This document shows, piece by piece, positions 8,102 through 30,716 of a DNA stretch of 32,000 nt; positions within the stretch are counted from its first letter, which is position 1; each line of letters begins with the position of its first letter. Source of the DNA: Anaerobacillus isosaccharinicus. GTDB lineage: Bacteria; Bacillota; Bacilli; Bacillales; Anaerobacillaceae. The notes under the pieces were generated by a model. It did no database searches. It saw only the letters and a list, made by a program, of their open reading frames with translations, and had not been told where the DNA came from. The stretch lies in contig NZ_CP063356.2 of assembly GCF_001866075.4 (NCBI RefSeq), positions 5,192,926 through 5,224,925 of the forward strand, given 5' to 3'. Both the position numbers and the translations under genes were made by a program.

Positions 8102-8196
8102 AATGTAAAATGTAGCGTGTAGAATGACGTTAGTAACGCTTCGAAGTTTTTCATAAACAATCTACATTTTAAATTTTACATTCTACATTTTACATT
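8102..8196. repeat. Palindromic heptamer-array element, copy A (most degenerate)
   Basis: Left arm AATGTAAAATGTAGCGTGTAGAATG, core CGCTTCGAAGTT (CTTCGAAG 8139-8146), right arm ATCTACATTTTAAATTTTACATTCTACATTTTACATT. The outer 14 bp of the arms are perfectly complementary. Confidence 0.9.
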
Positions 8197-8243
8197 ATCT
8201 CTTAATAAAAATATACGTCATTACTTGGTAAATAACACAACAA

Positions 8244-8280
8244 TCCCCCTTTAGAACTTTTTTCAAGTACTAAAAGGGGA
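8244..8280 (-). terminator. Probable intrinsic terminator after the replicative helicase gene
   Basis: Stem TCCCCCTTTAG/CTAAAAGGGGA (11 bp, one mismatch), followed in minus sense by UUGUUGUGUUAUUU. Confidence 0.6.
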
Positions 8281-8368
8281 ATACTAGTGATTATAAACTA
8301 ACATTAACAAATTCTTTTTAAAAGCTTCGAAAGCACTTCTCTCACAAATCAATAATTCAGAAATGAAC

Positions 8369-9739
8369 TTATGCTCCTGCGCCAATAGGCATATTATTCT
8401 CATCAAAACGCCGTTCTAAGTTTACGAATTTATTATATTCCTTCACAAAAGCTAGCTCTACTGTTCCAACAGGGCCATTCCTTTGTTTAGCAATAATGAT
8501 TTCAATGATATCCTTATTTTCGCTTTCTTTATCATAGTAATCATCTCGATACAAGAAAGCAACAATATCTGCATCCTGCTCAATACTTCCGGATTCACGA
8601 ATATCAGACATCATTGGACGTTTATCCTGACGGGATTCTACACCACGGGAAAGCTGAGAAAGGGCAATAACAGGAACTTCTAACTCCCTTGCCAATGCTT
8701 TAAGTGATCTAGAAATCTCAGAAACTTCTTGCTGGCGATTTTCGCCACTACGGCCATCACCACGAATCAACTGCAAATAATCTATTAAAATCATGCCTAG
8801 ACCTTTTTCTTGACTCAACCTGCGGCACTTTGCCCGGATATCATTAACACGAATACCAGGCGTGTCATCAATATATATACCAGCCTTAGATAAGCTTCCC
8901 ATCGCCATAGTAAGTTTCGTCCAGTCCTCTTCTTGAAGAGAACCTGTACGAAGTCTCTGTGCATCAAGGTTTCCCTCAGCACAAATCATCCTCATAACAA
9001 GCTGAGAAGCGCCCATCTCTAAACTAAAAATAGCTACATTTTCATCGGTTTTAGTTGCTACATTTTGAGCAATATTTAAAGCAAAGGCTGTTTTACCTAC
9101 AGATGGACGAGCCGCAACAATGATTAAGTCATTTCGTTGAAATCCAGCTGTCATCCGATCCAACTCAGAAAACCCTGTTGGAATTCCAGTTATATCCCCT
9201 GTTCGATTTTGAAGTTTTTCGATATTATCGTATGCTTCAACAAGCACATCTTTTATAGAAATAAACGCACTTGTATTTTTTTTATGGGAAACTTCTAAGA
9301 TCGTTTTCTCTGCTTCATTTAAGATTGCGTCTACTTCATCTTCTTCAGCATACCCTTCAGCTGCTATGTTTGTAGCTACTCGAATTAGTCGTCTTAACAA
9401 GGATTTCTCTTCAACAATTCTACTATAATACTCAACATTTGCAGCGGTAGGAACTGAGCTAGCTAAGTCACTTAAATAAGAAACGCCACCAATTTCCTCA
9501 AGCCATTTCTTGTCCTGGAGCTCGGCTGTTACCGTTATCAGGTCAACCGGTTCTCCTTTTTCGGCTAATTGAATCATCACGCTGTAAATCCGCTGATGTG
9601 CAGCCCGATAGAAATCTTCCGATGCTAGTCTTTCTGATGCTGTAACAAGAGCCTCTGGTTCTAAAAAAATCGCACCTATAACCGCTTGTTCTGCCTCAAT
9701 ATTTTGTGGCGGAGTGCGATCAGCGAACAATTCACTCAT
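8369..9739 (-). CDS. dnaB: Replicative DNA helicase (DnaB family; named DnaC in B. subtilis)
   Basis: 456 aa. N-terminal PPQNIEAEQAVIGAIFL, Walker A ARPSVGKTAFALN, Walker B LILIDYLQLI, and RNGPVG near the C-terminus. Confidence 0.97.
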   Translation of the reverse strand: MSELFADRTPPQNIEAEQAVIGAIFLEPEALVTASERLASEDFYRAAHQRIYSVMIQLAEKGEPVDLITVTAELQDKKWLEEIGGVSYLSDLASSVPTAANVEYYSRIVEEKSLLRRLIRVATNIAAEGYAEEDEVDAILNEAEKTILEVSHKKNTSAFISIKDVLVEAYDNIEKLQNRTGDITGIPTGFSELDRMTAGFQRNDLIIVAARPSVGKTAFALNIAQNVATKTDENVAIFSLEMGASQLVMRMICAEGNLDAQRLRTGSLQEEDWTKLTMAMGSLSKAGIYIDDTPGIRVNDIRAKCRRLSQEKGLGMILIDYLQLIRGDGRSGENRQQEVSEISRSLKALARELEVPVIALSQLSRGVESRQDKRPMMSDIRESGSIEQDADIVAFLYRDDYYDKESENKDIIEIIIAKQRNGPVGTVELAFVKEYNKFVNLERRFDENNMPIGAGA

Positions 9740-9761
9740 GATGGTTTCACCTACCTTTTTT

Positions 9762-9860
9762 AATGTAAAATGTAGAATTTAGAATGAGAATGATTAAGGG
9801 TAAGACTTCGAAGCTTCCCCCAAAACAATTCTACATTTTACATTCTACATTCTAAATTTT
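9762..9860. repeat. Palindromic heptamer-array element, copy B
   Basis: AATGTAA|AATGTAG|AATTTAG|AATGAGA..., spacer TTAAGGGTAAGA, core CTTCGAAGCTT, spacer CCCCCAAAACA, then ATTCTAC|ATTTTAC|ATTCTAC|ATTCTAA|ATTTTA. It fills the rplI-dnaB spacer. Confidence 0.92.
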
Positions 9861-10302
9861 ATCCTTCTACAACATGTACTTTAATTGTTGCTGTAACTTC
9901 ATGGTGAAGTTTGATTGGAACGTTAGTATAGCCTAGTGCACGAATAGGCTCGTCTAGTTCAATTTTACGCTTGTCTACTTTCATTTTCATTTTAGCTAGG
10001 GTGTCGGCAATTTGCTTGCTTGTAACGGCACCAAATAGACGTCCACCTTCACCAGACTTCGCCTTAATTTCGACAGTCAGTTTTTCTAGCTTTTCTTTAT
10101 ATACTTGAGCCTCTTTCAATTTTTCTTCTGCGCGCTTTTCTTCGCCTTGCTTTTTCACTTCTAATGTTTTTAAATTGCCTGAGTTTGCTTCAGCAGCTAA
10201 TTTATTTGGTAACAGAAAGTTTCTTGCGTACCCTTCAGAAACATTTTTTACTTCTCCTTTTTTACCTTTACCTTTTACGTCTTCAAGAAAAATTACTTTC
10301 AT
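9859..10302 (-). CDS. rplI: 50S ribosomal protein L9
   Basis: [36 protein letters not shown] is the canonical L9 N-terminus. 147 aa. Confidence 0.97.
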
Positions 10303-12269
10303 TCTTCTCTTCCCCCTTCAAAATATTGATCTATTTTTTCCATTAATAATCTTTCAGCTTCATCTAAAGAAACATCGCCAAGCTGGGTTGCTGCATTTGT
10401 CAAATGTCCTCCACCATCCAGCATTTCCATAATTAATTGTACATTGACATCACTTAAAGACCTTGCACTAATACTTGTTGCACCGTCTTTTCGTTTTGAA
10501 ATAACAAATGAAGCAACGACATCATTCATTGATAAAAGTGTGTCAGCTGCCTGAGCTATAAGGACTTGGCTACAAACTTCATCAGGATTTCCTTTTGCTA
10601 TTGCTATTCCATTTCTATATATATGAGCACTTTCAATTAACCTAGATCGCTTAATATACTGGTCTAAATCTTGTTTTAATAAATTTTGCACTAAATGTGT
10701 ATCTGCACCTTTGGACCTTAAGTAAGATGCGGCATCAAAAGTCCTTGAACCTGTTCGAACAGCAAAGCTTTTTGTATCAACGATGATTCCCGCTAACAAA
10801 GCAGTAGCTTCAAGGAGGTCAAGCTTAGTTTGCTTTGGTTGATACTCAAGAAGCTCAGTTACTAGCTCCGAGGTTGATGAGGCATAAGGTTCCATATAGA
10901 CGAGCACAGCTTCATCAATAAACTCTTCACCACGACGATGATGATCTAGAACGATTACACGGTCAATTTTATCTAATAACTTTGGTTCAATCACTAATGA
11001 AGGTTTATGTGTATCAACTACAACTAATAATGTATTAGGTGTCACTTCCTCTAACGCTTCTTCAGGAGTGATAAAGTGCGCCCATAAACGGTCATGCTTT
11101 TCAACTTCTTCCATGAGCTTACGAACATCTCTACTAATATTATTGCGATCTAATATAATATAGCCTTCTTTACCATTAAGCTCGGCTAATTTTAATACAC
11201 CAATTGCGGCACCAATGGCATCCATATCTGGACTAATATGCCCCATGATCATGACACGGTCACTTTCTAAAATAAAGTCTCGAATGGCATGAGAGATAAC
11301 TCTTGCCCTAACTCTCGTTCGTTTTTCAACAGCATTTGACTTCCCACCGTAAAAGCGTACTTTTCCATTTTTTTGTTTAATAGCAACCTGGTCACCACCT
11401 CTACCAAGAGCTAAATCTAAACTCGATTGAGCCAATATACCAAGTTCTTGAAGGCTCCCTTGTCCGCTACCAACACCAATACTTAAAGTAATCGGTATCT
11501 TTTCCCTAGCAGTTGCTTCCCTTACTTCATCAAGGAGATCAAACTTTGTTTCTTCAATTTTCTCTAATATCTCTTGATGAAAAATAGCTAGAAACCGGTC
11601 TGAAGATGTTCGCCTTAAAAAGACACCATGTTCCTTTGACCAACTATTTAAACTTGAAGTGACCTGACTCATTAATTTACTTCTAATTTGGTCTTCCATA
11701 CCTTGTGTAACTTCATCATAGTTGTCTAAATAAATAATAGCAATAACAGTTTGTTCCTTTTCGTACAGCTTTTTCACTTTTGTTTCTTCAGTAATATCAA
11801 AGAAATATATGAGCCTTTCATCACGTCGAAAGTTCGTCCGAAAAACATTTTCACCAATTTGTATCGATACTTCATTTTGTCCACTTTCAATAGCATCAGC
11901 AAGTTCCACAGCAATTTTGGAAATCGAGCTTCCAATACAATCTTCTTCTATAATCGAATTAACCATCGGATTTGCCCACTGAATGATTTTTTCTTCATTA
12001 TAAAGAAGAATTCCTATCGGAAGTTTCGTAACAGCCTCTTCTCCTGCTTTATTAACACGATATGTTAGTGTTGAGATGTACTCTTCGATATCCCTTTTGT
12101 ACAAATTTCTCGCCTGTATCGTGTAGAAAAGGAGGATTCCTAAGCTTAAGAATCCAAGTAAACCAATGATCCACTGGTATATTGTTAAAATCCCAATGAA
12201 AATGAATGCCACAGCAAATAATGCGATAATATGATAGCCATGCCACCGTTTTAATAGGAATTCTGGCAT
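10299..12269 (-). CDS. gdpP: Cyclic-di-AMP phosphodiesterase GdpP (YybT): two TM helices, PAS-like, degenerate GGDEF, DHH/DHHA1
   Basis: 656 aa, collinear with B. subtilis YybT as I recall it. DHH motif (VVVDTHKP...VLDHHRR) and DHHA1 GGGH ([11 protein letters not shown]). Overlaps the rplI start by 4 nt. Confidence 0.95.
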
Positions 12270-12284
12270 AATTTCAACTCCTAA

Positions 12285-13220
12285 TTAATTCGAGTTTTTT
12301 ATTCTTTTCCGAAGTTCAAATCCTAAATCAATTATACCTAATATTCGATAGATATAAAGGAGAAATGGGGCAATTAAAGTAACGATGATAATTCCAATAG
12401 GAATGGATTTATTAAATCCTTTAGCATGACAATAAAACATGATTACAGCTAATCCTTGGATCGTCATAGCAATCTCTAAAAGGGGGAACAAATTCCACAT
12501 CACCATATAAAGTGCCGTTCCTTCTTCTAACCCCACTAAAATAAAGATTGATGTTACTAAATAATACCATAAAAATGACTTTGGAAATGCCCACTCCCGA
12601 AATGGTTTGAACGGAGCAACTTTCTCCCCAATTCTTTTTAAGATTGCATAGGCGATTACTTGAACAAAAAGAGCAAAAAATACTCCCGTTGTGATGATTA
12701 AAGACGGCGCTAAAAACATTAGGCGATCAATAAAATCAATTAAGGGCTCTAGTTGTTTACCTGGGTCTTGTCCAATTGCAAGAAGCATTGATTCAGCTGT
12801 TTGTACGGAATCTCTCATTAATTCTTGAATGACTTTAATTGGATGTAAGTCTAATACGACGATGCTTAAAATAAAGTACAAAATTAAATTACTAATATAA
12901 GCTAGGCTTCCACCAAATAATACTGTAAATGCTGATTTTTTTCTTCTATATAACTCCCCAACAACAATTCCACTACTTCCAAAAATAATAGCACTAAGAA
13001 TAAGGACTACCCCACCAATAGTAAAAGAAACAAAGGAGGCGACAACCCATAACATCAATCCTGCTTTCCAGCCATTTCTTACTGTGTACACAATAAAAGG
13101 GACTGGTAATATCCAAAGTAAAATGGAACCTAAGATCGGTAAAAAAACTGTTAAAAAGGCTATTAATGCAAAAATTGCTGCAAAAATTGCTCCTTCAGTC
13201 ATTACCTTGGTATTTTTCAT
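12285..13220 (-). CDS. yybS: Polytopic membrane protein YybS (DUF2232)
   Basis: Highly hydrophobic multi-TM protein immediately upstream of gdpP, as in B. subtilis yybS-yybT. The ATG at 13220 follows GAGGGAAG. The longer ORF-track start (13292) would place the promoter candidate at 13298-13326 only 6 nt upstream of the start codon (TSS inside the ORF). Confidence 0.85.
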   Translation of the reverse strand: MKNTKVMTEGAIFAAIFALIAFLTVFLPILGSILLWILPVPFIVYTVRNGWKAGLMLWVVASFVSFTIGGVVLILSAIIFGSSGIVVGELYRRKKSAFTVLFGGSLAYISNLILYFILSIVVLDLHPIKVIQELMRDSVQTAESMLLAIGQDPGKQLEPLIDFIDRLMFLAPSLIITTGVFFALFVQVIAYAILKRIGEKVAPFKPFREWAFPKSFLWYYLVTSIFILVGLEEGTALYMVMWNLFPLLEIAMTIQGLAVIMFYCHAKGFNKSIPIGIIIVTLIAPFLLYIYRILGIIDLGFELRKRIKNSN

Positions 13221-13297
13221 TAGACTTCCCTCATTTCTAAAAACAGTTCCTAAATGATCGATCGCTATCCTATCAAATGTAACTATATCCATTCCTG

Positions 13298-13326
13298 ATT
13301 ATATACGACTAAATTGATTTTGAAAA
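13298..13326 (-). promoter_or_regulatory. Candidate sigma-A promoter for yybS-gdpP-rplI (-35 TTTTCA, 17 bp, -10 TATAAT)
   Basis: Minus-sense TTTTCA (13326-13321), 17 nt, TATAAT (13303-13298). Confidence 0.4.
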
Positions 13327-13439
13327 ATAGTCTTCGATACTTATCGAATTTTTTTCTTATACTACCATCCAGTATGTTTGTTGAATTCATATATTCAATT
13401 AATAATTAATAATTGATAGTATAAGAAAAAATTCGTAAT

Positions 13440-13461
13440 GAAGGCATAACTAGATGCCTTC
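13440..13461 (-). terminator. Hairpin overlapping the ktrC-like stop codon, possible terminator
   Basis: Perfect 8-bp stem GAAGGCAT/ATGCCTTC with a 6-nt loop containing the TAG stop. The minus-sense tail AUUACGAAUUUUUU places the U-run 7 nt away. Confidence 0.4.
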
Positions 13462-14106
13462 TTCCTCAAATTTTTTCAAATCATTGTTATGACCTATTAA
13501 AATTAAAATATCCTTTTCCAATATTAGTTGATCTGGAAAAGGTGTAATAATAACATCTTCCCCTCTTTTTATACCTAATATTGTACAGCCATACTTTGCA
13601 CGAATATCTAATTTTTGAATGGTTTTATTAGCGACTTTATGTGAAGCAATAAGCTCCATAATGCTATAGTCAGGAGACAGTTCAATATAATCGATAATTT
13701 TCTCTGAAACTAAGTAGTGGGCAATTCTTACTCCCATATCTTTTTCGGGATGAATAATTCGGTCTGCACCAATTTTTTCAACTACTTTATGGTGATAATT
13801 ATTTTGAGCTTTTACCCATACGTGCTTAACATTTAATTCTTTCAACAAAAGTGTGCAAAGAATGCTCGCCTGGATATTGTCACCAATTGCTACTATTACG
13901 TACTCAAAGTTCCTAATTCCTAAAGATAATAATGTATTTTCGTCTGTAGCATTCGCAACAACTGCGTGTGTCGAAAAATTAGCAAAATCATGTACTCTAT
14001 CCTCATTAGTATCAATGGCTAAAACTTCATGCCCCATTGAATATAATTCTTTACAAACACTACCACCAAATCTTCCTAAACCAACAACCGCAAATTGTTT
14101 CTTCAT
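13450..14106 (-). CDS. ktrC: K+ uptake regulatory subunit, KtrA/KtrC (TrkA-N plus RCK_C) family
   Basis: MKKQFAVVGLGRFGGSVCKEL is the GxGxxG Rossmann motif, with an RCK_C-like C-terminal half. Length and sequence resemble B. subtilis KtrC. The ORF-track start is a GTG 1 nt after the SD; the ATG at 14106 has proper spacing from AAGGGGG. Confidence 0.88.
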   Translation of the reverse strand: MKKQFAVVGLGRFGGSVCKELYSMGHEVLAIDTNEDRVHDFANFSTHAVVANATDENTLLSLGIRNFEYVIVAIGDNIQASILCTLLLKELNVKHVWVKAQNNYHHKVVEKIGADRIIHPEKDMGVRIAHYLVSEKIIDYIELSPDYSIMELIASHKVANKTIQKLDIRAKYGCTILGIKRGEDVIITPFPDQLILEKDILILIGHNNDLKKFEEEGI

Positions 14107-14213
14107 AATAAACACGCCCCCTTACTATACTTACTTCCTTTATGTATAGTTTAAACAGTTTTTGATTTACAATGTGTTTGCCCTACAGAAAAAGTGTAAC
14201 CTGTTGTCATTAA

Positions 14214-14247
14214 ATAAAAAAAGGAGATAGACTATAAGCCATCCCCT
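14214..14247 (-). terminator. Rho-independent terminator of rpsF-ssb-rpsR
   Basis: Minus sense AGGGGAU...AUCUCCU (7 bp including one G.U) followed by UUUUUUUAUUU, 11 nt after the rpsR stop. Confidence 0.7.
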
Positions 14248-14258
14248 TTTGACATTAA

Positions 14259-14504
14259 TTATTCACCGCTAACATACGGTAATAAAGCGATTTGACGTGC
14301 ACGCTTAATTGCAGTAGTTAATTGTCGTTGGTACTTAGCTGAAGTTCCAGTTACACGACGAGGTAAAATTTTACCACGCTCAGAAACGAAACGCTTAAGT
14401 AGTTCAACGTTTTTATAGTCGATTTTCGTGATCTTGTTTACTGTAAAGTAACATACTTTACGGCGCTTCGCACCACGGCCACCACGACGTCCTCCCATTG
14501 CCAT
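14259..14504 (-). CDS. rpsR: 30S ribosomal protein S18
   Basis: [18 protein letters not shown]...[37 protein letters not shown] is canonical S18. GGAGG lies 8 nt upstream. Confidence 0.97.
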
Positions 14505-14591
14505 CTAAAAAACCTCCTTCTTTATAAATTTTTATATTCATCCAAAAGGGTACTTACCCTTATTTAAGTTAAACTAAGAAAGCCAATAGAT

Positions 14592-15083
14592 CTAGAATGG
14601 TAAATCATCATCTGAGATATCAATTGGCTTGCCATCACTAGCAAAAGGATCATCAGAAAATGACTGATTACTACGGCCTTGATTCTGGTTGTTATTATTT
14701 CCTCCTTGATTAGGAGAGCCATAATAGTCTCCACCGCCCTGATTTCCACCAGAATTGTTAGAGCCTTTCGTTTCAAGAAATTGCACACTATCAGCTACAA
14801 CTTCCGTTATAAAAACTTTCTTTCCTTCATTGTTTTCATAATTACGAGTTTGTAGACGACCATCAACACCCGCTAAACTTCCTTTACGTAAGTAATTAGC
14901 AACATTTTCTGCTTGTTTACGCCAAATGACTACGTTAATAAAGTCTGCTTCTCGGTTACCTTGTTGGTTAGAAAATGGTCTGTTTACAGCAAGTGTAATA
15001 CTTGCTACAGCAATTCCATTCGGCGTGTACTTAAGTTCAGGATCTCTTGTGAGTCGACCTACCAGAACGACACGGTTAAGCAT
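14592..15083 (-). CDS. ssb: Single-stranded DNA-binding protein
   Basis: [27 protein letters not shown] is the OB fold, followed by a Gly/Asn/Gln-rich linker and the acidic tip DISDDDLPF. Confidence 0.97.
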
Positions 15084-15114
15084 CAGAACCCCTCCCCAAT
15101 ATATCTACTAGTTC

Positions 15115-15402
15115 TTATTCTTCGTCTTTAGTAATAAGTAAACGAATTACATCTTCGTTAATTTTAATTAAACGATCGAATTCAGCGATTGCTGCTGGTT
15201 CAGCTGTTACGTTTAGTAATACATAGAAGCCTTCACGGAAGTCTTCAATTTCATAAGCTAAACGACGCTTACCCATTTCTTGAACCTTATCAAGAGTCGC
15301 TCCATTATCAGTTAAAACGTTGTTAAAACGTTCAACTAACTCTTTCTTTGCAGCTTCTTCTAGGTTTGGTCGAATAATGTACATGATTTCATATTTACGC
15401 AT
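15115..15402 (-). CDS. rpsF: 30S ribosomal protein S6
   Basis: [26 protein letters not shown]... is canonical S6. 95 aa. AAAGGAGGTG RBS. Confidence 0.97.
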
Positions 15403-15494
15403 TTGTACGTCACCTCCTTTTGGTCTAACGGCCCCTCTTAATTGAGGAGCAAGGGGCGAATAATAACAATTTTATAAGTGTCATTTACTCGCAT
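15403..15494 (-). promoter_or_regulatory. Structured rpsF 5' leader (candidate S6:S18 autoregulatory leader)
   Basis: Minus sense GCCCCUUGCUCCUCAAUUAAGAGGGGCCG forms a CCCCU/AGGGG hairpin. Its CUCCUC segment is complementary to the downstream SD. An S6:S18-binding leader is known upstream of rpsF in Bacilli, but no covariance model was run. Confidence 0.4.
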
Positions 15495-15500
15495 TTATCG

Positions 15501-15529
15501 ATTATAGCAGAATTAATATAGAAAGTAAA
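15501..15529 (-). promoter_or_regulatory. Candidate sigma-A promoter of rpsF-ssb-rpsR (-35 TTTACT, 17 bp, -10 TATAAT)
   Basis: Perfect TATAAT (15506-15501). The -35 TTTACT (15529-15524) lies inside the terminal heptamer of repeat copy C. Confidence 0.5.
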
Positions 15530-15616
15530 ATGAAAAATGTAGAATGTAGAATTTTTTTAGGGAAGCTTCGAAGCTAGTCCCACGCCATTTTACATTCTAC
15601 ATTGAATTTTACATTT
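15523..15616. repeat. Palindromic heptamer-array element, copy C
   Basis: AAGTAAAATGAAAAATGTAGAATGTAGAAT, spacer TTTTTTAGGGA, core AGCTTCGAAGCT (CTTCGAAG 15566-15573), spacer AGTCCCACGCC, then ATTTTACATTCTACATTGAATTTTACATTT. The right end abuts the ychF stop. Confidence 0.92.
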
Positions 15617-16716
15617 TAAACGTTAAACCTAAAGTGAATAACATCACCATCAGCAACGACATATTCTTTTCCTTCTAGCCTTACTTTCCCTTTTTCCTTA
15701 GCCGCAGCATGAGAACCAGCTTCAACTAGGTCATCATACGCTACTACTTCCGCACGAATAAAACCTCTCTCGAAGTCTGTATGGATGACTCCAGCAGCTT
15801 GAGGAGCTTTAGTCCCTTTCCGAATTGTCCATGCACGAACTTCTTGAACACCTGCTGTAAAATAGGTTGATAATCCTAATAAATGATAAGCAGCGCGGAT
15901 TAGTTGGTCTAAACCAGATTCCTTAATTCCTAACTCCTCAAGGAACATTGTCTTTTCTTCGCCTTCAAGTTCAGAAATTTCCTCTTCTATTTTTGCACAA
16001 ACAACGATAACCTCTGAGTTTTCTGCTGCAGCAAATTCTCTTACCTTTTGAACTAGTGGATTTTCATCTGCTACAAGTAACCCATCCTCATTCACGTTTG
16101 CTACGTATAATACAGGCTTCATCGTTAGTAAATGCATTCCTTGGACAATTTTCTTTTGCTCGTCCGTTAAATCTACACTTCTAGCAGGCTTTTCATTTTC
16201 AAATGCCTCTTTAAGTAAATTTAAAATTTCATACTCTGCCATTGCATCTTTATCTCTTTGCTTCAATAACTTTTCAACACGCATAATACGTTTTTCGACT
16301 GAATCAAGATCAGCAAGAATTAATTCTAAGTTAATCACTTCAATATCACGAATTGGATTTACACTACCAGATACGTGAGTGATGTTTTCATCTTCAAAAC
16401 AACGAACAACATGTGAGATTGCATCAACTTGGCGAATATGTGATAAAAATTTGTTTCCTAACCCTTCACCCTTACTTGCCCCTTCTACAATTCCTGCAAT
16501 ATCAGTAAATTCAAATGCAGTTGGAACCGTTTTTTTCGGTTGAACAAGTTCAGTTAACTTATTTAGACGGTGATCAGGAACTTCAACAATCCCTACATTA
16601 GGATCAATCGTACAGAATGGATAGTTAGCAGACTCTGCTCCTGCTTGTGTAATTGCATTAAATAATGTTGATTTTCCTACGTTAGGCAAACCAACAATTC
16701 CAGTCGTTAAAGCCAT
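15616..16716 (-). CDS. ychF: Ribosome-binding ATPase YchF (Obg-like)
   Basis: [16 protein letters not shown] is the G1 motif. 366 aa with a TGS-like C-terminus ([10 protein letters not shown]). Confidence 0.97.
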
Positions 16717-16960
16717 ATCATTGACACTTCCTTCATTATTAATAATATTTAATAAATTTCATTATTCAATATTCGTGACACTAATTTACAAGACTAAATC
16801 GCGTCCATTAGTTGCAATCATGCTAATTATGAAATTCATTTATATAAACTTTAAGTACGAATTCAAAGTTAAAAACAAGTTTTCTAATCCTTCACAATTA
16901 TATTGATTAAAGAAGAAAAGCGCAAGCGCCCCGTTAGCCCCGACTTGTTAATGTTCTGAA

Positions 16961-16990
16961 AGGAAAAACAAGCCTTGTTAAGCTTGTTTT
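16961..16990 (-). terminator. Hairpin overlapping the yyaE stop codon, probable terminator
   Basis: Stem AACAAGC/GCTTGTT (extendable with A/T pairs) with an 8-nt loop carrying the stop codon, followed in minus sense by UUUUUCCUUUC. Confidence 0.5.
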
Positions 16991-18978: not shown

Positions 18979-18995
18979 ATAATAAACCTCTCCCT

Positions 18996-19210: not shown

Positions 19211-19302
19211 GTTCGCTTCCCCTCCCTTAACCTAAAAAACAGATTTATCTATTTGTCATTATACAATAATGAAGACTTAAGATACTATCTTAAAACATAA
19301 AT

Positions 19303-19338: not shown

Positions 19339-19340
19339 AC

Positions 19341-20381: not shown

Positions 20382-20461
20382 TATTTATTCCCGGGCATGT
20401 ATAGAAAGGAAAAAATATCCGTATACTAATACTATTAATTTTTAAGATGGGAGGTCATAGG

Positions 20462-21082: not shown

Positions 21083-21152
21083 AGAATTATGTAACCTTCA
21101 ATTCGAAATATTTATTTAGCTACTTTAACTATTTAAAACCTTTATTAAGCAC

Positions 21153-21200
21153 GAAAAAAGACAACTCCTTACATGTATATGTAGAGGTTGTCTTCTTTTA
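21153..21200. terminator. Bidirectional terminator between convergent yyaC and the DUF554 gene
   Basis: AAAAAAGACAAC...GTTGTCTTCTTTTA. A 7-bp GC-containing stem extended by inner TACAT/ATGTA pairing, with an A-run on one side and a T-run on the other. Confidence 0.6.
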
Positions 21201-21261
21201 TGAATAATTTATTAGTTTTGCGTTTAAAGCGTAGAGTTTTCAAAGTAGCTCAGTGCAGTTT

Positions 21262-21963: not shown

Positions 21964-21975
21964 TCTCGTCTTCTC

Positions 21976-23136
21976 CTATCCCACTAAACCTTCTTTTATC
22001 TCTATAATCATATCAATCCATTGGTCAATTTCTTCTATTGTATTATAAAGTCCAAAACTAGCCCGTAACGTACCACCTTCAATTGTTCCAATCGTTTCAT
22101 GCGCTAATGGCGCACAATGGAGTCCACCTCTTAATGCAACTTGATAGTGTTGGTCAAATATCATTGCAATTTCTTGGACATCGGTTTCATTAATAATAAA
22201 CGGAATGACTGCCAACCTTTCAACATGAAGATCAGGACCAAATACAGTTACACCATTAATATTTTTGAGTTTTTCTAAGCAGTATTTTGTTAATTTCCAT
22301 TCATGTTGGAAAATAGTCTCGACACCTCTACTAACTACTTCATCAATTCCAGCCGATAATCCAGCGATACCTGGTGTGTTTAATGTTCCACTTTCATAGC
22401 GGTTTGGTCGTGCTAGAGGTTGATCTTTTTCTTCAGAATGACTACCAGTTCCCCCATGAAAAAGTGGAGTTAGTTCGATTGATTTTTTAACAATAAGGGC
22501 ACCCGTTCCTTGTGGACCTAATAACCCTTTATGACCTGGAAATGCTAGCATATCGATATTCATTTCTTCCATATTTATCGGCAATATACCCGCTGTTTGT
22601 GAAGCATCGACTAAAAAGGAAATTCCTCTCTCTTTACAAACTGTCCCGATCATTTCTATTGGAAAAATAGCCCCTGTTAAGTTTGAGCCGTGGCTAGCTA
22701 CAATTAATTTCGTTTCAGGGAGTACTTCTGTTAAAAGTTGTTCTCTTGAGATATGACCATTATGATCACTTTTTAAATAGGTAACCTTTACACCTTTTTC
22801 TTGTTTTAAATACTCCAAAGGTCTCCTTACCGAATTATGTTCGTAAGAAGTTGAAATAACATGATCACCTTGTTTTAGATGTAAACCTTTAATTCCTTGA
22901 TTTAGTGCGTGAGTTGCGTTTTGACAAAAGATCACATTATTCGGATCTTTTTCGCCAAAAAGCTTTGCTAGCTTTACTCTTGTTTCATATATGACTGACG
23001 CTGCCTGATTCGCTAATTGATGCCCACCTCGGCCTGGATTGGCTCCAAACTCATTAATGGCTTTGATAACAGCAGTCGCAACAGTGTCTGGCTTTGGAAA
23101 TGAAGAAGCCGCTTGATCAAAATAAATGATTGGCAC
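21976..23136 (-). CDS. Class-V aminotransferase-fold PLP enzyme, cysteine desulfurase family
   Basis: PLP-lysine motif AFPGHKGLLGPQG and active-site loop RGGLHCAP, typical of NifS/Csd-like desulfurases. GTG start 5 nt after AGGAGGG. Confidence 0.85.
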   Translation of the reverse strand: MPIIYFDQAASSFPKPDTVATAVIKAINEFGANPGRGGHQLANQAASVIYETRVKLAKLFGEKDPNNVIFCQNATHALNQGIKGLHLKQGDHVISTSYEHNSVRRPLEYLKQEKGVKVTYLKSDHNGHISREQLLTEVLPETKLIVASHGSNLTGAIFPIEMIGTVCKERGISFLVDASQTAGILPINMEEMNIDMLAFPGHKGLLGPQGTGALIVKKSIELTPLFHGGTGSHSEEKDQPLARPNRYESGTLNTPGIAGLSAGIDEVVSRGVETIFQHEWKLTKYCLEKLKNINGVTVFGPDLHVERLAVIPFIINETDVQEIAMIFDQHYQVALRGGLHCAPLAHETIGTIEGGTLRASFGLYNTIEEIDQWIDMIIEIKEGLVG

Positions 23137-23176
23137 GTTTACCCTCCTAACAAATTTCTCTTTAATCCTATAATTA

Positions 23177-23213
23177 GAAAAAAAGAGACTAACCCTTAAG
23201 GATTGGGTTAGAC
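23177..23213 (-). terminator. Rho-independent terminator of soj-spo0J
   Basis: Minus sense GUCUAACCC-AAUCCUUAA-GGGUUAGUC followed by UCUUUUUUUC. Confidence 0.7.
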
Positions 23214-23280
23214 CTCTTAAGAGACATCTTTACGTCCGTCTTACTTTTTGTCTAGCAAAAAACTAGCTCTTTTCTTATTA

Positions 23281-24126
23281 TTAGTTTCCTTCTAATAACG
23301 ATAAAATTCTTTCTAAATCATCTTCAGAATAAAATTGAATTTCAATCTTACCCCTTTTCTTATTTTTCTTGATCGCAACAGAAGTACCAAAACGATCTCT
23401 TAAATACTCTTCTTTTTCTTTTATGAAAATAGAAGGCTCTTGTTTTTTTCGAATTGTTTCACGTGAAACATTCTCATTTAGATTCTGAATAATTTGTTCT
23501 AGTTGCCTGACATTCAGACCTTCTTCAAGTACCTTTTTGAGTAAAGGTACGAGCTTTTCTTTATTTTTTAATCCTAGTAAAGCTCGTCCATGCCCCATGG
23601 AAAGCTCTCCTTCTTCGATTAAAGCTTGAACTTCGTTTGGTAACTGTAATAAACGAAGATGATTGGCAATATGTGGGCGACTTTTCCCTAAACGCTTTGC
23701 AAGCTGCTCTTGTGTTAATTTTAAATGTTTCATAAGCTTATCGTAGGCAACAGCTTCTTCGATCGAGTTCAAATCTTCCCTTTGTAAGTTCTCAATTAAG
23801 GCAAACTCCATCATTTTATCTTCTGTTAACTCTTTGATAACAACAGGGACTGTTTTTAATCCCGCCTCTGTAGCAGCACGATATCTACGCTCACCTACGA
23901 CAATTTCATAGCCTTTAATACTTTTGCGGACTAGGATTGGTTGTAATATGCCATGGTTTAGGATTGAATCTTTCAACTCAGTAATTGATTCCTCTGAAAA
24001 GTACTTTCTTGGTTGATAAGGATTTGGCCTTAATTCACTTAATGAAACCTCTTGAATTTGTTCTTGTTTTTCATCCATTGCATCTGGAAAAAATGCTGAT
24101 ATCCCCTTACCTAACCCTTTAGCCAT
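23281..24126 (-). CDS. parB: Chromosome partitioning protein ParB/Spo0J
   Basis: [13 protein letters not shown]..., [18 protein letters not shown] and the [28 protein letters not shown] are near-identical to B. subtilis Spo0J. The ATG at 24126 overlaps the soj stop; the ORF-track start is a TTG. Confidence 0.96.
23455..23470. other. parS centromere-like site (perfect 16-bp palindrome) inside parB
   Basis: TGTTTCACGTGAAACA matches the Firmicute parS consensus TGTTNCACGTGAAACA exactly. B. subtilis also carries a parS within spo0J. Confidence 0.92.
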
Positions 24127-24880
24127 TCGCAACCACTTCCTTTGCTAAATCTAGATAAACTTCAGCTCCCCTTGATTTCGGGTCATAAGTAATGATTGGT
24201 TGCCCGTGACTTGGCGCTTCACTTAAACGTACATTTCTTGGAATAATTGTTTTAAAAACTTTTTCTCGAAAGTATTTTTTTACTTCATCAATCACTTGAA
24301 TTCCCAAATTCGTTCTCGCATCAAGCATCGTTAACAATACACCTTCAATTGCTAAGTTTTTATTTAAGTGCTTTTGAACTAACCTAACCGTATTTAAAAG
24401 TTGACTTAATCCTTCAAGGGCATAATACTCACATTGAACTGGTATTAAGACTGAATTAGCAGCTGTCAAAGAATTAATCGTTAATAAACCTAAAGAAGGT
24501 GGGCAGTCAATAATGATATAATCATATTCTAGTTCCACTTGTTCAAGTGCTCTTCTTAATCGAACTTCCCTTGAAATTGTAGGAACTAGCTCTATTTCAG
24601 CACCGGCTAACTGAATAGTAGAAGGTATAATATGTAAACCGTCTACCGTTGTTTGCCTGATAACTTCTTTTGGACTTATATCTTCAACTAAAATGTTATA
24701 AATACAATTTTCAACATCGCCTTTATCTATACCAATTCCACTTGTTGTATTTCCTTGGGGATCAACGTCAATTAACAGTACTTTTTTACCTAAATGAGCT
24801 AGACAAGCACTTAAATTAACAGCAGTGGTTGTTTTACCAACCCCACCTTTTTGATTCGCGATTGCTATTACTTTCCCCAT
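24119..24880 (-). CDS. soj: ParA-family ATPase Soj
   Basis: [23 protein letters not shown] is the deviant Walker A. 253 aa from the ATG at 24880, which follows GAGGTAGGTGA. The ORF-track start adds 12 aa. Confidence 0.96.
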
Positions 24881-25146
24881 TCTTTCACCTACCTCATTTA
24901 CATGTCTTTCTATCATATTTAAATAGAATTTTGGTATAAAATGTATCTAGATTAAGATTTTTAACCAAAAAATATCTATCTAAAAATGCATTAGTTATAT
25001 TTTATCATGAAAATTTAAAACTAAGTTATTTTTTACGTTAAAAAATTGAAAAACTATTGATATTGATAGAAAAGTAAATAAAAAAAGAACTCAAATCCGA
25101 GGAAGTGAGCCATAGAATTAAGATAAATGGTAATTACCTAAAATTA

Positions 25147-26007
25147 TTATTTCTTTTTTGGGATTTTAATCGTGAATTGATAATAGTCTTCATGATCTTC
25201 TTCATCGGTATCAATAGAAAGACCACTTTTGATAACCATATCAACAGATTGACGAATTGTATTCATCGCTAAACGCATATCTCTTGAAAATGCTTTTCTT
25301 TGCGGTTTTTTCTTTTTGATTGGTCCTTCTAAGAACTTCTTAATAAGTTCTTCGGTTTGTTTCACATTTAGTCCTTTTTCAATAACTTCCGTAAGAAGTT
25401 TTTCTTGAACCTCTTCATCTTTTACAGATAGAAGTGCTCTAGCATGACGTTCTGTAATCACTCGATTTAATATAGCTTCCTGTACCTTTTCCGGTAACTG
25501 TAATAGCCGAAGTTTATTTGCGATTGTGGACTGCCCTTTTCCAAGGCGTTGCGCTAAACTTTCTTGTGTTAAACCATGTAACTCTAATAATTTAGCATAG
25601 GCAACAGCTTCTTCAATCGCTGTTAAACCTTCACGTTGCAAATTTTCAATTAAAGCAACAGAAGCAGTTTGGGAATCATTAAATTCCTTCACAATTGCCG
25701 GAATATGCTCCCAACCTAATTTCGTCACTGCTCTCCAGCGGCGTTCCCCAGCAATGATCTCAAATCTACCATCACGCTCACGGACAACGATTGGTTGAAT
25801 AACACCATGGGTACGAATCGTTTGTGCTAATTCATCAATACGTTCATCAACAAAAACAGTACGGGGCTGAAAACGATTTGGTACTATATCCTTAATAGGT
25901 AATTGTTTTACTTCTTCGTTCTCCCTAATTTCCTCAACTTTTTCTACTTCTTCAATTATTTCTTCGCTCTTTTCATTAAAACCGAACAGGCGTGAAAACG
26001 GCTTCAT
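25147..26007 (-). CDS. noc: Nucleoid occlusion protein Noc (ParB paralogue)
   Basis: [10 protein letters not shown] is the N-terminal amphipathic membrane-targeting helix typical of Noc. ParB box GERRWRA and [28 protein letters not shown]. Sits between rsmG and soj as in B. subtilis. Confidence 0.93.
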
Positions 26008-26101
26008 CGCGACACCACCCTCTGAAAACTACCTTCCTAACATATTTCTACATTGATATTAGAAAGTCCTTCTTTAATAATAACATTATAAACAATAAAA
26101 A

Positions 26102-26117
26102 TGTTTCACGTGAAACA
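26102..26117. other. parS site (perfect) in the rsmG-noc intergenic region, centre of a 30-bp perfect palindrome
   Basis: TGTTTCACGTGAAACA. The flanks extend the palindrome to ATAAAAATGTTTCACGTGAAACATTTTTAT (26095-26124). Confidence 0.92.
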
Positions 26118-26204
26118 TTTTTATTATGAATAAATCAAATAAGTCTATTAGACTAGCAAATTCAAAGATCAGTCAGATGTAACCAACAAATTTACTCTCC
26201 TAAA

Positions 26205-26230
26205 GAAGCTAACGATTAGTAGTTAGCTTC
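26205..26230 (-). terminator. Strong hairpin just after the rsmG stop (possible terminator; short U-tract)
   Basis: Perfect 9-bp stem GAAGCTAAC/GTTAGCTTC with an 8-nt loop. The minus-sense tail is only UUUAGG. Confidence 0.4.
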
Positions 26231-26248
26231 CTAAAGAATTTCAAATTT

Positions 26249-26962
26249 TTATAACGGTTGTTTATTTGGAGTTCCTGGCTTTCTTGGATACGTATTTGGT
26301 GTTTTCTTGCGTTTTTCGATAAATACAAAATGTCTTGTACTCTCTTCAACGGGTAATAATAAACTTTCGTTTCTAACAACGTGTCCTCCAAGAGTAGCAA
26401 TCGCTTTTTTACTATCTGCAATTTCATTAACTACTTCCGGACCTTTCATTGCTAGGAACAAGCCGCCTACTTTCACTAAAGGCAAACAAAGTTCTGCTAA
26501 AACAGGCATTCTTGCTACAGCCCTAGCTATGACAAAATCATAATTTTCACGATGTTCTTTTTTCTTAGCAAACGATTCAGCACGATCATGAAAAAATGCT
26601 ACCTTTTCTAACTTTAACATTGAAGCTAAATGTTGTAAAAAAGAAATTCGCTTGTTCAAAGAATCGACAATTGTTACGTTTAAGTGAGGAAAACAAATTT
26701 TTATGGGAATACTTGGAAATCCAGCTCCAGCACCTACATCAACTAGACGTAACGGCTTTGTGAAATCATGAAAAAAAGCTGCACTAATTGAATCATAAAA
26801 ATGTTTTAAATACACCGCTTCTTCATCGGTAATCGCTGTTAAATTCATTTTATTATTCCACTCAACTAATTCACGAAAATATAACTCAAATTGTTGCATT
26901 TGCGTTTCATTAAGAACAATACCTTTTTCTGCTAAGCTAGAATGAAACTCTGTCTTATTCAT
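26249..26962 (-). CDS. rsmG: 16S rRNA (guanine527-N7)-methyltransferase RsmG (GidB)
   Basis: [17 protein letters not shown]...[13 protein letters not shown]...VYLKHFYDS...[15 protein letters not shown] is the SAM motif. The ATG at 26962 overlaps the mnmG stop; the ORF-track start is a GTG. Confidence 0.95.
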
Positions 26963-28859
26963 CTGTACCACTTTCTTTCGTTCTTTTTAATTTACCTTGC
27001 TCTAAATAGACTAATAAAATTGATACATCAGCAGGATTAACACCTGAAACCCTTGAAGCCTGACCAACAGAAAGCGGTCTTACTTCACTTAGTTTTTGAC
27101 GAGCCTCTGTTGCCAGTCCAGAAATTGCATGATAATCAAGATTTTCAGGGATCTTTTTATCATCCATTTTCTTCATTTTTTCAACTTGTTGATACTGCTT
27201 TTCAATATATCCAGCATACTTAATTTGAATTTCTACTTGTTCAGCCACTTCAGCTGAAACTTCTTCATCACTAGGGAAAAGCTTCGCAATAAATTGATAC
27301 GTAATTTCAGGACGCTTTAATAGTACAGATGCTTTATAACCATCTTGTAATGGTGAAGATCCAATTTCAGCAAGTAATGACTGCACTTCACTAGTCGGCC
27401 TAATCATCGTTTGTTCTAATCGCTCAATTTCCTTTCTAACTTGGTCTTGTTTTGCGACAAAACGCTGGTAACGTTCCTCAGGAATAAGGCCGACCTTATA
27501 TCCAATTTCTGTAAGTCTTAGATCAGCATTGTCATGACGCAGCACTAACCGATGCTCCGCTCTTGAAGTAAGCAACCGATAAGGTTCATTCGTTCCTTTT
27601 GTTACTAAATCATCTACTAAAACACCAATATATGCTTCTGAACGATCAAGAATAATCGGCTCGCGGTTAGATGCTTTTAGCGCTGCATTAATCCCTGCAA
27701 AAATCCCTTGCCCTGCAGCCTCTTCATAGCCTGATGTTCCATTAATTTGACCTGCTGTAAAAAGGTTTTGAACTAATTTTGTTTCAAGAGTTGGCCAAAG
27801 TTGCGTTGGTACGACTGCATCATACTCAATGGCATACCCTGGACGCATCATTTTTACATTTTCTAACCCTTTAATTGTTTTTAACATTTCTAGCTGCACT
27901 TCTTCTGGCAAGCTTGTTGAAAATCCTTGGACATAAACTTCAGACGTATTTTTCCCTTCAGGTTCTAGAAAAATTTGGTGTCTAGGCTTATCACTAAAAC
28001 GAACAATTTTATCCTCAATTGACGGACAATATCTTGGACCAGTTCCTTCTATTACTCCTGAATACATAGGCGAACGGTGCAAATTAGCATTTATAATTCC
28101 GTGTGTTTCCTCTGTCGTATACGTTAACCAACAAGGTAATTGATCTACGACATTAAATTCTTTCGTTTCATATGAAAAAGCTCTTGGTTCATCATCTCCA
28201 GGTTGAATTTCGGTCACGCTATAATCAATAGTATCTCCTTGAACACGTGGAGGAGTTCCTGTTTTAAATCTAACTAACTGAAAGCCATGATTAAGTAAAT
28301 CATACGCTAAATTAACAGAAGGCTGTTGATTGTTTGGTCCACTTTCATAAGCTAAGTCACCAAGTATGACTTTTCCTCGTAAATAAGTACCGGTTGTAAT
28401 AATGACTGTCTTAGCTTTATAAGTTGCACCAGTATTAGTAACAACACCGCGGCAAAGTCCATCTTCAACAATTAGTTTTTCAACCATTCCTTGACGTAAC
28501 AATAAATTCTCTTGCTCTTCGATTGTCTTTTTCATTTCATGTTGATATAAATATTTATCGGCCTGAGCACGCAGCGCCCGGACTGCTGGCCCCTTTGCAG
28601 TGTTTAACATTCTCATTTGAATATGGGTTTTATCAATATTCCTTCCCATTTCGCCACCAAGAGCATCTATTTCTCTAACAACTATCCCTTTTGCAGGACC
28701 ACCTACAGAAGGATTACAAGGCATATAAGCAACTGCATCTAAATTTAACGTTAACATTAACGTGTTAGCACCCATTCGTGCCGCAGCTAAGCCCGCCTCT
28801 ACCCCTGCATGCCCAGCCCCAACAACGATAACATCAAACTCACCAGCATGATATTCCAT
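26955..28859 (-). CDS. mnmG: tRNA uridine 5-carboxymethylaminomethyl modification enzyme MnmG (GidA)
   Basis: [23 protein letters not shown] is the FAD dinucleotide fold. 634 aa, collinear with GidA. Confidence 0.97.
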
Positions 28860-28879
28860 TAAAATTCCTCCTCTACTTC

Positions 28880-28977
28880 ATTGTAAAATGTAGAATTTAG
28901 AATGTAGAATTAGTCGAGGGGAAAGCTTCGAAGCAACACTCACAACATTCTTCATTTTAAATTTTACATTCTACATT
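28880..28977. repeat. Palindromic heptamer-array element, copy D (best hairpin)
   Basis: ATTGTAAAATGTAGAATTTAGAATGTAGAAT, spacer TAGTCGAGGGGA, core AAGCTTCGAAGC (CTTCGAAG 28926-28933), spacer AACACTCACAAC, then ATTCTTCATTTTAAATTTTACATTCTACATT. By hand, 26 Watson-Crick pairs plus 1 G.U over 31 arm positions. Confidence 0.93.
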
Positions 28978-30353
28978 TATTTCCCTAAACAAAACTGTGA
29001 AAAAAGTTGATCGATTAGGCTTTCTGAAACGGTATCTCCGTTGATTTCACCTAATAGTTCCCATGTTCTTGTTATATCTATTTGAACCATATCAATAGGT
29101 ACTGCTGAATGCAGCGCCATAATCGCTTCATCAATCGTTCCTAGCGCTTGATGTAGTAAACCTATATGCCTAGAATTTGATACATACGTTAAGTCGCCAC
29201 CTTCAATATTACCCTGGAAGAAAAGTTTTGAGATGGCATCTTCTAACTCATCAATGCCTTCATCTTCTATTAAAGATGTCGTAACAACGGGTCTTCCTTT
29301 TGCTAACACCTTAACTTTCTCTAAATCAATTTTCTTAGCTACATCAGTTTTATTGACGATAATGATTGCATCCATGTTTTCAATAATTTCAAATAAGCTC
29401 TCATCTTCTTTTGTTAATACTTCACCGTAATTCAAGACAAGTAAAACGAGTTCTGCTTCTTTAACTACTTTCCTTGATCGTTCAACACCAATTTTTTCAA
29501 CAATATCTTCTGTTTCTCTAATACCAGCAGTGTCTAACAATCGTAGCGGAACACCTCTAACATTAACATATTCCTCAATAACATCCCTTGTTGTACCTGG
29601 TATATCTGTCACAATCGCTTTCGCTTCATGAACTAAGCTATTTAATAATGAGGATTTTCCGACATTCGGTCTTCCAATAATAACTGTTGAAAGCCCTTCT
29701 CGTAATATTTTCCCTTGTTGGGCCGTGTTAAGAATTTTTTCTATTTCACCCTTAACATACTGTGCTTTCTCTAAAAGAAGGTTAGTCGTCATTTCCTCAG
29801 CATCGTATTCTGGATAATCAATATTTACCTCAACGTGAGCAACCGTCTCTAGTAACGCTTGTCTTAGCTTCTGAACTTTTTTTGATAATCTTCCTTCGAC
29901 TTGGCCAATAGCAACGTTCATTGCCTTGTCTGTTTTAGCACGAATCAAATCAATAACACCTTCTGCTTGAGACAAATCAATTCGACCATTTAGAAAAGCC
30001 CGTTTTGTGAACTCACCTGGTTCAGCTAGACGAACACCCGACTGCAACACTTGTTGCAAGACGCGATTAACAGAAACTAAGCCACCATGACAGTTAATTT
30101 CAACAATGTCTTCCCTTGTAAATGTTCTTGGAGCCTTTAAAACTGAAACCATTACTTCATCTATAACTTGCTCTGAATTTTTTTCAATAATATAGCCGTA
30201 GTGGATCGTATGACTTTCCACCTCTAATAAAGATTTTCTACCTTTATAAATTTTATTAACCGCAGCAACTGCATCGTCTCCACTTACTCGAACAATAGCA
30301 ATAGCACCTTCCCCCATCGCAGTGGAAATTGCGGCAATTGTATCAAATTCCAT
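28977..30353 (-). CDS. mnmE: tRNA modification GTPase MnmE (TrmE/ThdF)
   Basis: [26 protein letters not shown]1 motif [18 protein letters not shown], and the C-terminal CLGK tetrapeptide. The ATG at 30353 lies 9 nt after GAGGTG; the ORF-track GTG start is part of that SD. Confidence 0.96.
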
Positions 30354-30621
30354 CTTCTTCTTCACCTCTTAATAGAAAAGCATAGAGCGCCGCATAGCGG
30401 CGACAAGCAAATAATATTATTGTATTTCTTTATAGAAAATCCTACTGTCCCTAACTAACAAGAATACCACAGTCTCTCTTTAATAAAAAGATTTTCCAAC
30501 TACTCTATTCAACTATTGTTTCCGTTTTTCACTATTATCAACCGTAAAACTATCCACAACCCTTTTTTCTTATTTTTTTCTTTTAAAAACATTTCTATTT
30601 TTCCACATGTTAATAACCGAT

Positions 30622-30716
30622 TTAAAATGCAAAATGTAGAATATAGAATTACTTGTGGGTAAATTCTACGAAGCTTTTCAAAAACATTTTACATTCTAAA
30701 TTCTATATTCTACATT
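30622..30716. repeat. Palindromic heptamer-array element, copy E
   Basis: TTAAAATGCAAAATGTAGAATATAGAATT, spacer ACTTGTGGGTAAAT, core TCTACGAAGCTT (one mismatch), spacer TTCAAAAA, then CATTTTACATTCTAAATTCTATATTCTACATT. 18 bp (30632-30649 against 30699-30716) are perfectly complementary. Confidence 0.9.

Follow-up and report, generated by a model that had tools for sequence, protein, structure and literature searches.

What are the five hairpin-forming palindromes that lie between housekeeping genes in a 32,000-nucleotide stretch of the Anaerobacillus isosaccharinicus chromosome (contig NZ_CP063356.2, positions 5,192,926 to 5,224,925; hereafter the window)? A preliminary description, made from the sequence alone, had reported five elements of about 95 bp in which tandem AATGTAR heptamers are arranged as inverted arrays around a palindromic core, and had likened them to a dispersed family of the REP (repetitive extragenic palindromic)/BOX/MITE (miniature inverted-repeat transposable element) class. 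All five copies were present where that description had placed them, with the architecture it had given (Table 1). Our analysis revealed that they share a family core, G-run and spacer, that their arms gain and lose units among close strains, and that the element is present in some relatives and absent from others. Within a genome all copies have one type of unit, and in a sister species these five sites hold a different one. We see about an even chance that the family is largely selfish foldback DNA similar to REPINs (hairpin-forming REP doublets) and MITEs, that is, a palindrome with microsatellite arms in safe intergenic sites.

Table 1. Coordinates of the five elements and of the associated promoter-like site in the window
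Feature	Position	Strand	Description
Copy 1	8102..8196	.	between dnaC (helicase) and preQ1 riboswitch/queC
Copy 1, left arm	8102-8126		
Copy 1, core palindrome	8138-8147		GCTTCGAAGT
Copy 1, right arm	8161-8196		
Copy 2	9762..9860	.	between rplI and dnaC; core ACTTCGAAGC at 9805-9814
Copy 3	15515..15616	.	between ychF and rpsF; core GCTTCGAAGC at 15565-15574
Copy 4	28880..28977	.	between mnmE and mnmG; core GCTTCGAAGC at 28925-28934
Copy 5	30622..30716	.	upstream of mnmE, directly after the jag terminator hairpin; variant core CTACGAAG at 30666-30673
rpsF promoter-like site	15501..15529	-	TTTACT-17-TGcTATAAT; -35 hexamer from the last repeat unit of copy 3

The two-unit probe AATGTARAATGTAR, with up to two mismatches, matched the window 32 times, against 3.09 +/- 1.76 matches in shuffled sequences. 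All but one of these matches (31/32) lay within the five copies, and the single stray was at 13115. Host copy counts here and below cover the 32-kb window. The core GCTTCGAAGC, with up to one mismatch, had four occurrences where 0.49 were expected, one per copy in copies 1-4, and copy 5 has CTACGAAG in its place, in agreement with the earlier statement that the core is invariant in four copies and variant in the fifth. An alignment of the five copies with MAFFT gave a single architecture, consisting of a left array, a G-run, the core, an A/C-rich spacer and an inverted array. The GGG to the left of the core, said to occur in four of five copies, was found in copies 2-5 and is missing from copy 1. 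The A/C-rich spacer (AAACAAT, ACAACATT and similar) lies on one side in 5/5 copies, so the orientation is identical in all of them, as had been claimed. The central hairpin is short and contains G/C (GGG...GCTTCGAAGC...CCC), and it is flanked by the two inverted arms. In all five copies each arm is a microsatellite of 3-5 in-phase heptamer units of the form AAT-NNN-R, mostly AATGTAG or AATGTAA. When periods 5 to 11 were scanned, arrays were found in the window only at period 7. The start of copy 3 moves from 15523 to 15515 when one degenerate unit is added.

Each copy was predicted to fold strongly as a hairpin on both strands, with energies of -22.5 to -34.3 kcal/mol and z-scores of -3.5 to -8.1. 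None of the shuffles (0/200) folded as well as a copy, which bears out the long hairpin expected for each of them. An RNAalifold consensus of seven copies contained 13 pairs only, two of them with double changes, and is uninformative, since the repeats shift their register.

The best named protein matches of the window were MnmG of Anaerobacillus sp. CMMVII (94%) and of A. alkalilacustris (90%), and further ones were DnaC of Bacillaceae bacterium IKA-2 (92%) and of Anaerobacillus sp. MEB173 (89%). Identical DnaC sequences were recorded for two SRA-derived assemblies only. Among the loci fetched from relatives, L123 and L159 belong to IKA-2 (CP134492.1) and L157 to CMMVII (GCA_025377685.1). Locus L155, with 96-97% nucleotide identity to the window, carries copies 1-3. 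The 3' arm of its copy 2 is 13 nt, or two units, shorter than in the window; elsewhere the two differ by small indels and core substitutions. In locus L124 (91% amino-acid identity over YchF, GdpP and DnaC), copies 2 and 3 are present and copy 1 is decayed, and L151, from the same metagenome, is a further member. A core-specific scan of metagenomes gave one real extra copy and three chance matches. These additional copies, together with a variant type in L156 and L157, support the view that the elements form a dispersed hairpin family. Locus L126 (83%) has no element at any of the three sites checked, those of copies 1-3. In L123 no AATGTAR-type element occurs at the sites of copies 2 and 3, and a plain terminator stands exactly at the latter. 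At the copy 1 site of L123 (11369-11540) we found inverted arrays of an 8-nt unit (AAAGTTGG), and inverted arrays of this kind occupy the copy 5 site of L159 (3169-3251). The IKA-2 unit is a third lineage-specific unit, with a differing period. Its arrays (AAAGTTGG / CCAACTTT) are accompanied by CTAACCAA and AAACCC runs.

In L156 and L157, an element is present at all five orthologous sites. The cores are related (GCTTCGAAG, GCTCCGAAGC, GCTTCGGAAGC), and the arms are built of AGTTTTG and its variants. In L157, the site of copy 4 holds an AGTTTTG-type element and that of copy 5 an AGTTATG-type element. All window units (37/37) have A at position 2, where 44/53 units of L156/L157 have G, and the middle triplet is mostly GTA in the former and TTT in the latter. 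The L156/L157 copies have the same non-periodic order of variant units in common, which marks them as copies of each other. In L156, one arm is expanded to 12-13 AGTTTTG units and its partner arm is not. At the dnaC-queC site of L156 (11507-11750), an AATGTAA-type remnant with its own GCTTCGCAGC core stands immediately before an AGTTTTG-type element with 12-13 units in its 3' arm. From its layout, this pair may have arisen when an element inserted within an older copy or next to it. Similarity among cores was slightly higher within a genome (0.19 and 0.16) than at orthologous (0.00) or non-orthologous sites (0.08). Since the cores group by genome, whole elements appear to be genome-specific. 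The idea that cores are inherited with the locus while arms are homogenised within the genome was rejected, because orthologous cores are no more alike than non-orthologous ones. The spacers of the A-type and B-type elements are partly palindromic and fit a core in either relative orientation between the two species.

We then scanned 185,579 species genomes for two AATGTAR units followed, after 40-70 nt, by two inverted units. The scan matched at least 120 loci, and the taxa among the matches listed were Saprospiraceae, Chitinophagaceae, Flavobacterium, Prevotella, Peribacteria (candidate phyla radiation, CPR), Nitrospira, Clostridia, Gemmatimonadota, Alphaproteobacteria and Anaerobacillus. 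The 125 elements examined among the matches listed have lineage-specific cores; the median arm has 30 nt and a complementarity of 94%, and a variant unit in one arm has its exact mirror image in the other. With the seed units set aside, positions 1-3 and 7 hardly change (A 97%, A 93%, T 87%, R 93%) and positions 4-6 vary. Of 100 placeable elements among the matches listed, 98 are intergenic (51 between tandem, 34 between convergent and 13 between divergent genes), and the median distance from the upstream stop codon to the element is 16 nt. Sense-strand folding bias was absent: the sense strand was more stable in 19 cases and the antisense strand in 31 (Wilcoxon p = 0.72), and arm mismatches were of the G:U type in 23 cases and of the A:C type in 26. 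With no preference for the sense transcript, the palindromic symmetry is a property of the DNA.

Some genomes of other phyla contain near-identical dispersed copies (95-98%). In a metagenome-assembled genome (MAG) of Saprospiraceae, the heptamer module lies inside a unit of ~180 bp with 19-bp terminal inverted repeats and flanking duplications of ~9 bp. A Saprospiraceae locus (L001, MAG, 531-684) holds a 22-unit AATGTAR array, a Cloacimonadota MAG (L005, 5607-6010) has three element copies at 170 bp spacing, and dense clusters of related copies were seen in loci L066, L113 and L120 (Clostridia MAG). In viral contigs the AATGTAR pattern gave 13 matches, 3 of which are real arrays. The other 10 (L127-L134, L136, L139) come from a single conserved coding region of phages, which matches the pattern by chance and contains no heptamer arrays. 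Control heptads gave real inverted arrays in the viral contigs as well, five for AAGTTAR and three for AATTGAR. The inverted heptamer-array design is general, and AATGTAR did not stand out in the viral-contig comparison.

Searches for a known family gave no name for the element. Against Rfam, the window yielded six tRNAs only at the gathering score and none of these at the copies; in E-value mode, copies 1-2 had nothing credible on them, and the only match was the preQ1 riboswitch next to copy 1. The repeat sequences were absent from the searchable literature, and a literature search for Anaerobacillus repeats returned nothing relevant. Within the reach of these searches, the family has neither a name nor a description. 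The earlier remark that the design belongs to no named family stands for the sequence and falls short for the build, as palindromes of heptamer arrays have a precedent in Xanthomonas (PMC4692102). Its exclusion of a CRISPR array, an insertion sequence (IS) and a plain terminator holds. The CRISPR reading, with its 24-48 bp direct repeats and unique spacers, was rejected, as the copies are internally inverted, 1.7-13 kb apart and separated by genes. An intrinsic terminator, with a G/C-rich stem and a U-tract directly behind it, was rejected because no terminator-like site found by the scans lies on a copy and copies 2 and 4 are inside operons. Readings as Spo0A boxes, DnaA boxes, extended -10 elements or start-stop mini-ORFs (open reading frames) were post hoc and unsupported by the distribution, and were not adopted. 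The same applies to the resemblances to the HutP UAG-N4 and MazF UACAU motifs.

The nearest published design is that of the Xanthomonas GGGAATC inverted heptamer arrays. Each Xanthomonas genome has 183-186 arrays, including 70-75 convergent pairs able to form stem-loops (Rehm et al. 2015, PMC4692102). About 90% of the arrays are intergenic, nearer to the 3' end of the upstream ORF, with co-directional genes on both sides in most cases, and they vary in length and sequence between sister species, most often with ~4 units (PMC4692102). Like this class and the short tandemly repeated repetitive (STRR) sequences, for which 2-3 tandem 7-nt units per array are the minimum, all five of our copies have such tandem units (3-5 per arm), and the unit number differs between close strains (the window and L155; L156). 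The five window copies and nearly all placeable elements of the cross-phylum set likewise are convergent pairs of arrays in intergenic positions, close behind the upstream ORF. In Xanthomonas the unit is rich in G and has been investigated for quadruplex formation, whereas ours is A/T-rich; moreover, no conserved central core was described there and the arrays are confined to one genus, whereas here the core is shared and the unit recurs across phyla. Beggiatoaceae, Cyanobacteria and Bacteroidetes all have TAACTGA arrays, for which no route of transfer is known (MacGregor 2015, PMC4679880). They too are intergenic tandem heptamers with stop codons within, one heptamer being found in unrelated phyla, but the STRR and TAACTGA arrays are almost always direct (1/170 TAACTGA sets inverted) and are placed immediately upstream of start codons.

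In REPINs, two REPs make up a hairpin-forming unit that REP-associated tyrosine transposases (RAYTs) mobilise (Bertels & Rainey 2011, PMC3116915; Di Nocera 2013, PMC3733652). Our elements resemble them, and bacterial interspersed mosaic elements (BIMEs) made of REPs, in being dispersed extragenic hairpins of ~100 nt with two inverted modules and a spacer. REP modules are G/C-rich imperfect palindromes ending in a GTAG (or CGTC) tag, whereas the arms here are A/T-rich tandem heptamers; GTAG occurs only inside the AATGTAG unit and is missing from AATGTAA units and from the AGTTTTG type. REP/PU sequences are reportedly species-specific, a trait that our elements have too. No RAYT gene was found in the fetched loci, to which the search was confined. 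In common with MITEs such as Correia/NEMIS, RUP, ERIC and bcr1, the elements are short, non-coding, bounded by inverted repeats, gene-adjacent and presumably co-transcribed, with possible promoter-like hexamers, and only the heptamer-bearing units of Saprospiraceae also have terminal inverted repeats with a target duplication. The window copies differ from MITEs in lacking defined termini and a target duplication, and the number of their arm units varies. Small palindromic repeats and heptamer arrays, including convergent pairs, are already known. What is new here is the combination of a shared core with heptamer arms, one unit across phyla, and the switch of unit type at five orthologous sites between sister species.

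If the family is selfish foldback DNA of this kind, replication slippage would alter the number of units, and hairpin-templated copying (template switching) would keep the two arms complementary. A copy-and-replace process would then spread or overwrite copies within a genome, either by transposition targeting existing copies or hairpins, or by ectopic gene conversion anchored in the arms. Several observations weigh against this reading. The terminal inverted repeats and target-site duplication of a MITE were not found at the window copies, whose outer ends are variable. Empty sites had been sought in the orthologous spacers of relatives; element-free sites do exist, but they differ from the window throughout and none is a clean, alignable empty site. 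That two species have the same five sites occupied would call for conversion or for a target preference of great strength. Neither a transposase nor any other associated gene was found within ~4 kb of the 120 loci, and all-vs-all clustering of 2,290 ORFs from these loci gave common families only (response regulators, ABC transporters, OmpA). An IS200 probe of limited sensitivity had no hits. No parent IS with the same termini was seen in the ~1 Mb of loci searched. Finally, RAAT returns almost unchanged every 7 nt and one unit recurs across phyla; both hint at a specific trans-acting factor, for which a model of selfishness or slippage alone has no need. A bolder proposal, to which we give a small share of our confidence, is that a lineage-specific trans-acting machine recognising RAAT-N3 heptads reads or writes the arms, for example an HUH or other transposase or a templated repeat-adding enzyme. 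The unit type would then switch jointly per genome, and the same AATGTAR system would operate in Bacillaceae, Bacteroidota, CPR and Nitrospirota.

The window is the origin-proximal housekeeping region of a member of the Bacillaceae. By the Pfam labels of orthologous loci, the gene order is jag-[c5]-mnmE-[c4]-mnmG-rsmG-noc-parA-parB, ychF-[c3]-rpsF-ssb-rpsR and gdpP-rplI-[c2]-dnaC-[c1]-queCDEF-purA, where c1-c5 are the five copies. The ORFs flanking all five copies are co-directional on the minus strand, in line with the setting first described. The accompanying statement that the copies never lie inside coding sequence needs a slight correction: at their right ends, copies 2, 3 and 4 reach or overlap the upstream gene's stop codon (9859-9861, 15616-15618, 28977-28979), so these elements abut coding sequence. 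Copies 2 and 4, both inside operons, fill all of the space between a stop codon and the ribosome-binding site that follows. A gene that reads into an arm, (AATGTAR)n, runs into stops in all three frames no more than 21 nt on, and each ATG there is immediately followed by a stop. The arm leaving the element, (YTACATT)n, is stop-free and offers TTTACA -35-like hexamers. With these properties, copies can abut the stop codons, ribosome-binding sites and promoters of essential operons harmlessly; this harmlessness to the host would be a consequence of the sequence facts. Within operons they are presumably transcribed along with their neighbours, and the A/U-rich hairpin of ~30 bp could be cleaved by RNase III or block exonucleases; no sign of selection for such an effect was seen here. 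The -10 of the rpsF promoter-like site (TGcTATAAT) is conserved in five relatives, and its -35 is element-derived only where the element is present.

Some further features of the region were recorded. A preQ1-I riboswitch candidate adjoins copy 1 directly upstream of queC (8047-8094, minus strand; 27.5 bits where the gathering score is 39; E = 0.0057), and its sequence is conserved in L123, L124, L155 and L156. Two perfect parS sites (TGTTTCACGTGAAACA) were found at 23455-23470 and 26102-26117, with 0 expected; one is in a parB-like gene and the other lies between ORFs 25147-26007 and 26249-26971, by gene order noc and rsmG. Three DnaA boxes with one mismatch lie within 113 bp (30550-30662) between copy 5 and mnmE, and one of them (TTACCCACA) falls in the copy 5 spacer. 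Across the whole window DnaA boxes are at chance level (11 against 10.3). In B. subtilis, a cluster of DnaA boxes lies in the jag-thdF spacer. A 34-nt sequence duplicated at 94% identity (3585-3618 and 3723-3756) overlaps the 5' end and upstream region of tRNA-Met within a six-tRNA cluster (3126-3986) and may be a leftover of a duplicated tRNA or promoter. In L126, and in this relative only, an IS3-family transposase pair (HTH_28 and rve domains) lies between an M23 peptidase gene and walR (14532-15694).

Other explanations bear on the same observations. The arrays could be operator-like or centromere-like cis-sites, in which RAAT-N3 heptads are bound by a cooperative DNA protein and the unit type co-evolves with that protein. 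The nearly invariant unit positions 1-3 and 7 around a variable triplet, the symmetry at the level of DNA with no strand bias, and the joint switch of unit type at all five sites would fit such a function, as would the density of five copies in 32 kb by an origin region that also holds parS sites. A binding mode of this kind exists, as the ribbon-helix-helix omega repressor binds direct and inverted heptads. Yet no associated gene was found near the 120 loci, the copies are dispensable in L126 and L123, which have element-free sites as noted above, the unit number can differ greatly between two arms, and the matches are scattered in large chromosomes of other phyla; we regard functional operator arrays as rather unlikely. 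Growth in place, which we likewise hold to be unlikely and no nearer the mark, would require no movement: units would multiply by slippage at each site around a hairpin already there, for example a terminator, and template switching would mirror them. The polymorphism of unit number and the one-sided expansion point this way, and so do the plain terminator in L123 exactly at the copy 3 position, the arrays that flank terminator-like G/C hairpins in other taxa and phage contigs, and the like inverted arrays of the control heptads. Two papers (PMC4692102 and PMC4679880, citing Mrazek 2007) describe heptamers as the commonest long simple-sequence repeat in bacteria and explain them by polymerase slippage. 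Growth in place does not account for the non-periodic core and spacers common to five copies, for the identical order of variant units across the L156/L157 copies, or for near-identical dispersed copies with target duplications elsewhere, and independent growth cannot yield one unit type per genome at five sites.

Two explanations place the function in gene expression. Hairpins in operon mRNAs might act in processing, stabilise 3' ends, serve as terminators or attenuators, or offer arrays to an RNA-binding protein or nuclease, with UAG-N4 repeats (HutP type) and UACAU sites (MazF type) as candidate motifs, whose resemblance is post hoc. The copies stand just past stop codons and within operons, and their folding is strong. 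This explanation appears improbable to us, as neither folding energy nor the balance of G:U against A:C mismatches shows a sense advantage. Moreover, no U-tract follows the hairpins of the window copies, the terminator scans placed no terminator-like site on any of the five, Rfam has no match, and close relatives have the same operons without elements. Least of all do we expect the elements to be promoter modules, in which tandem -10-like hexamers and outward TTTACA-N17-TACATT sites with the 7-bp period drive or modulate neighbouring genes. Outward sites made by the repeat period do occur (TTTACA-17-TACATT at 30688-30716; TCTACA-17-TACAAT at 28908-28880, facing mnmG), and the rpsF -35 hexamer is element-derived. 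The inward-pointing -10-like hexamers (TAGAAT, TAAAAT) of the preliminary description are there as sequence but have no -35, and promoter-like sites were not enriched over shuffles in two scans (33 vs 30.2 and 10 vs 7.5). Relatives also express the same operons without the element. On this balance we keep, at about even odds, the reading as largely selfish foldback DNA similar to REPINs and MITEs.

Few parts of bacterial genomes are as poorly understood as small palindromic repeats, and the arm design found here joins the literature on heptamer microsatellites with that on REPs and MITEs. The elements stand against stop codons, ribosome-binding sites and promoters, and copy 3 gives rpsF its -35 hexamer, so they matter for annotation and strain typing. 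Sister Anaerobacillus lineages that carry different units in the same five essential-operon spacers provide a natural experiment on genome-wide concerted change, which could be used to find the copying or binding factor. The recurrence of the design in at least five phyla suggests a general, unrecognised route by which hairpin-forming DNA spreads or grows.

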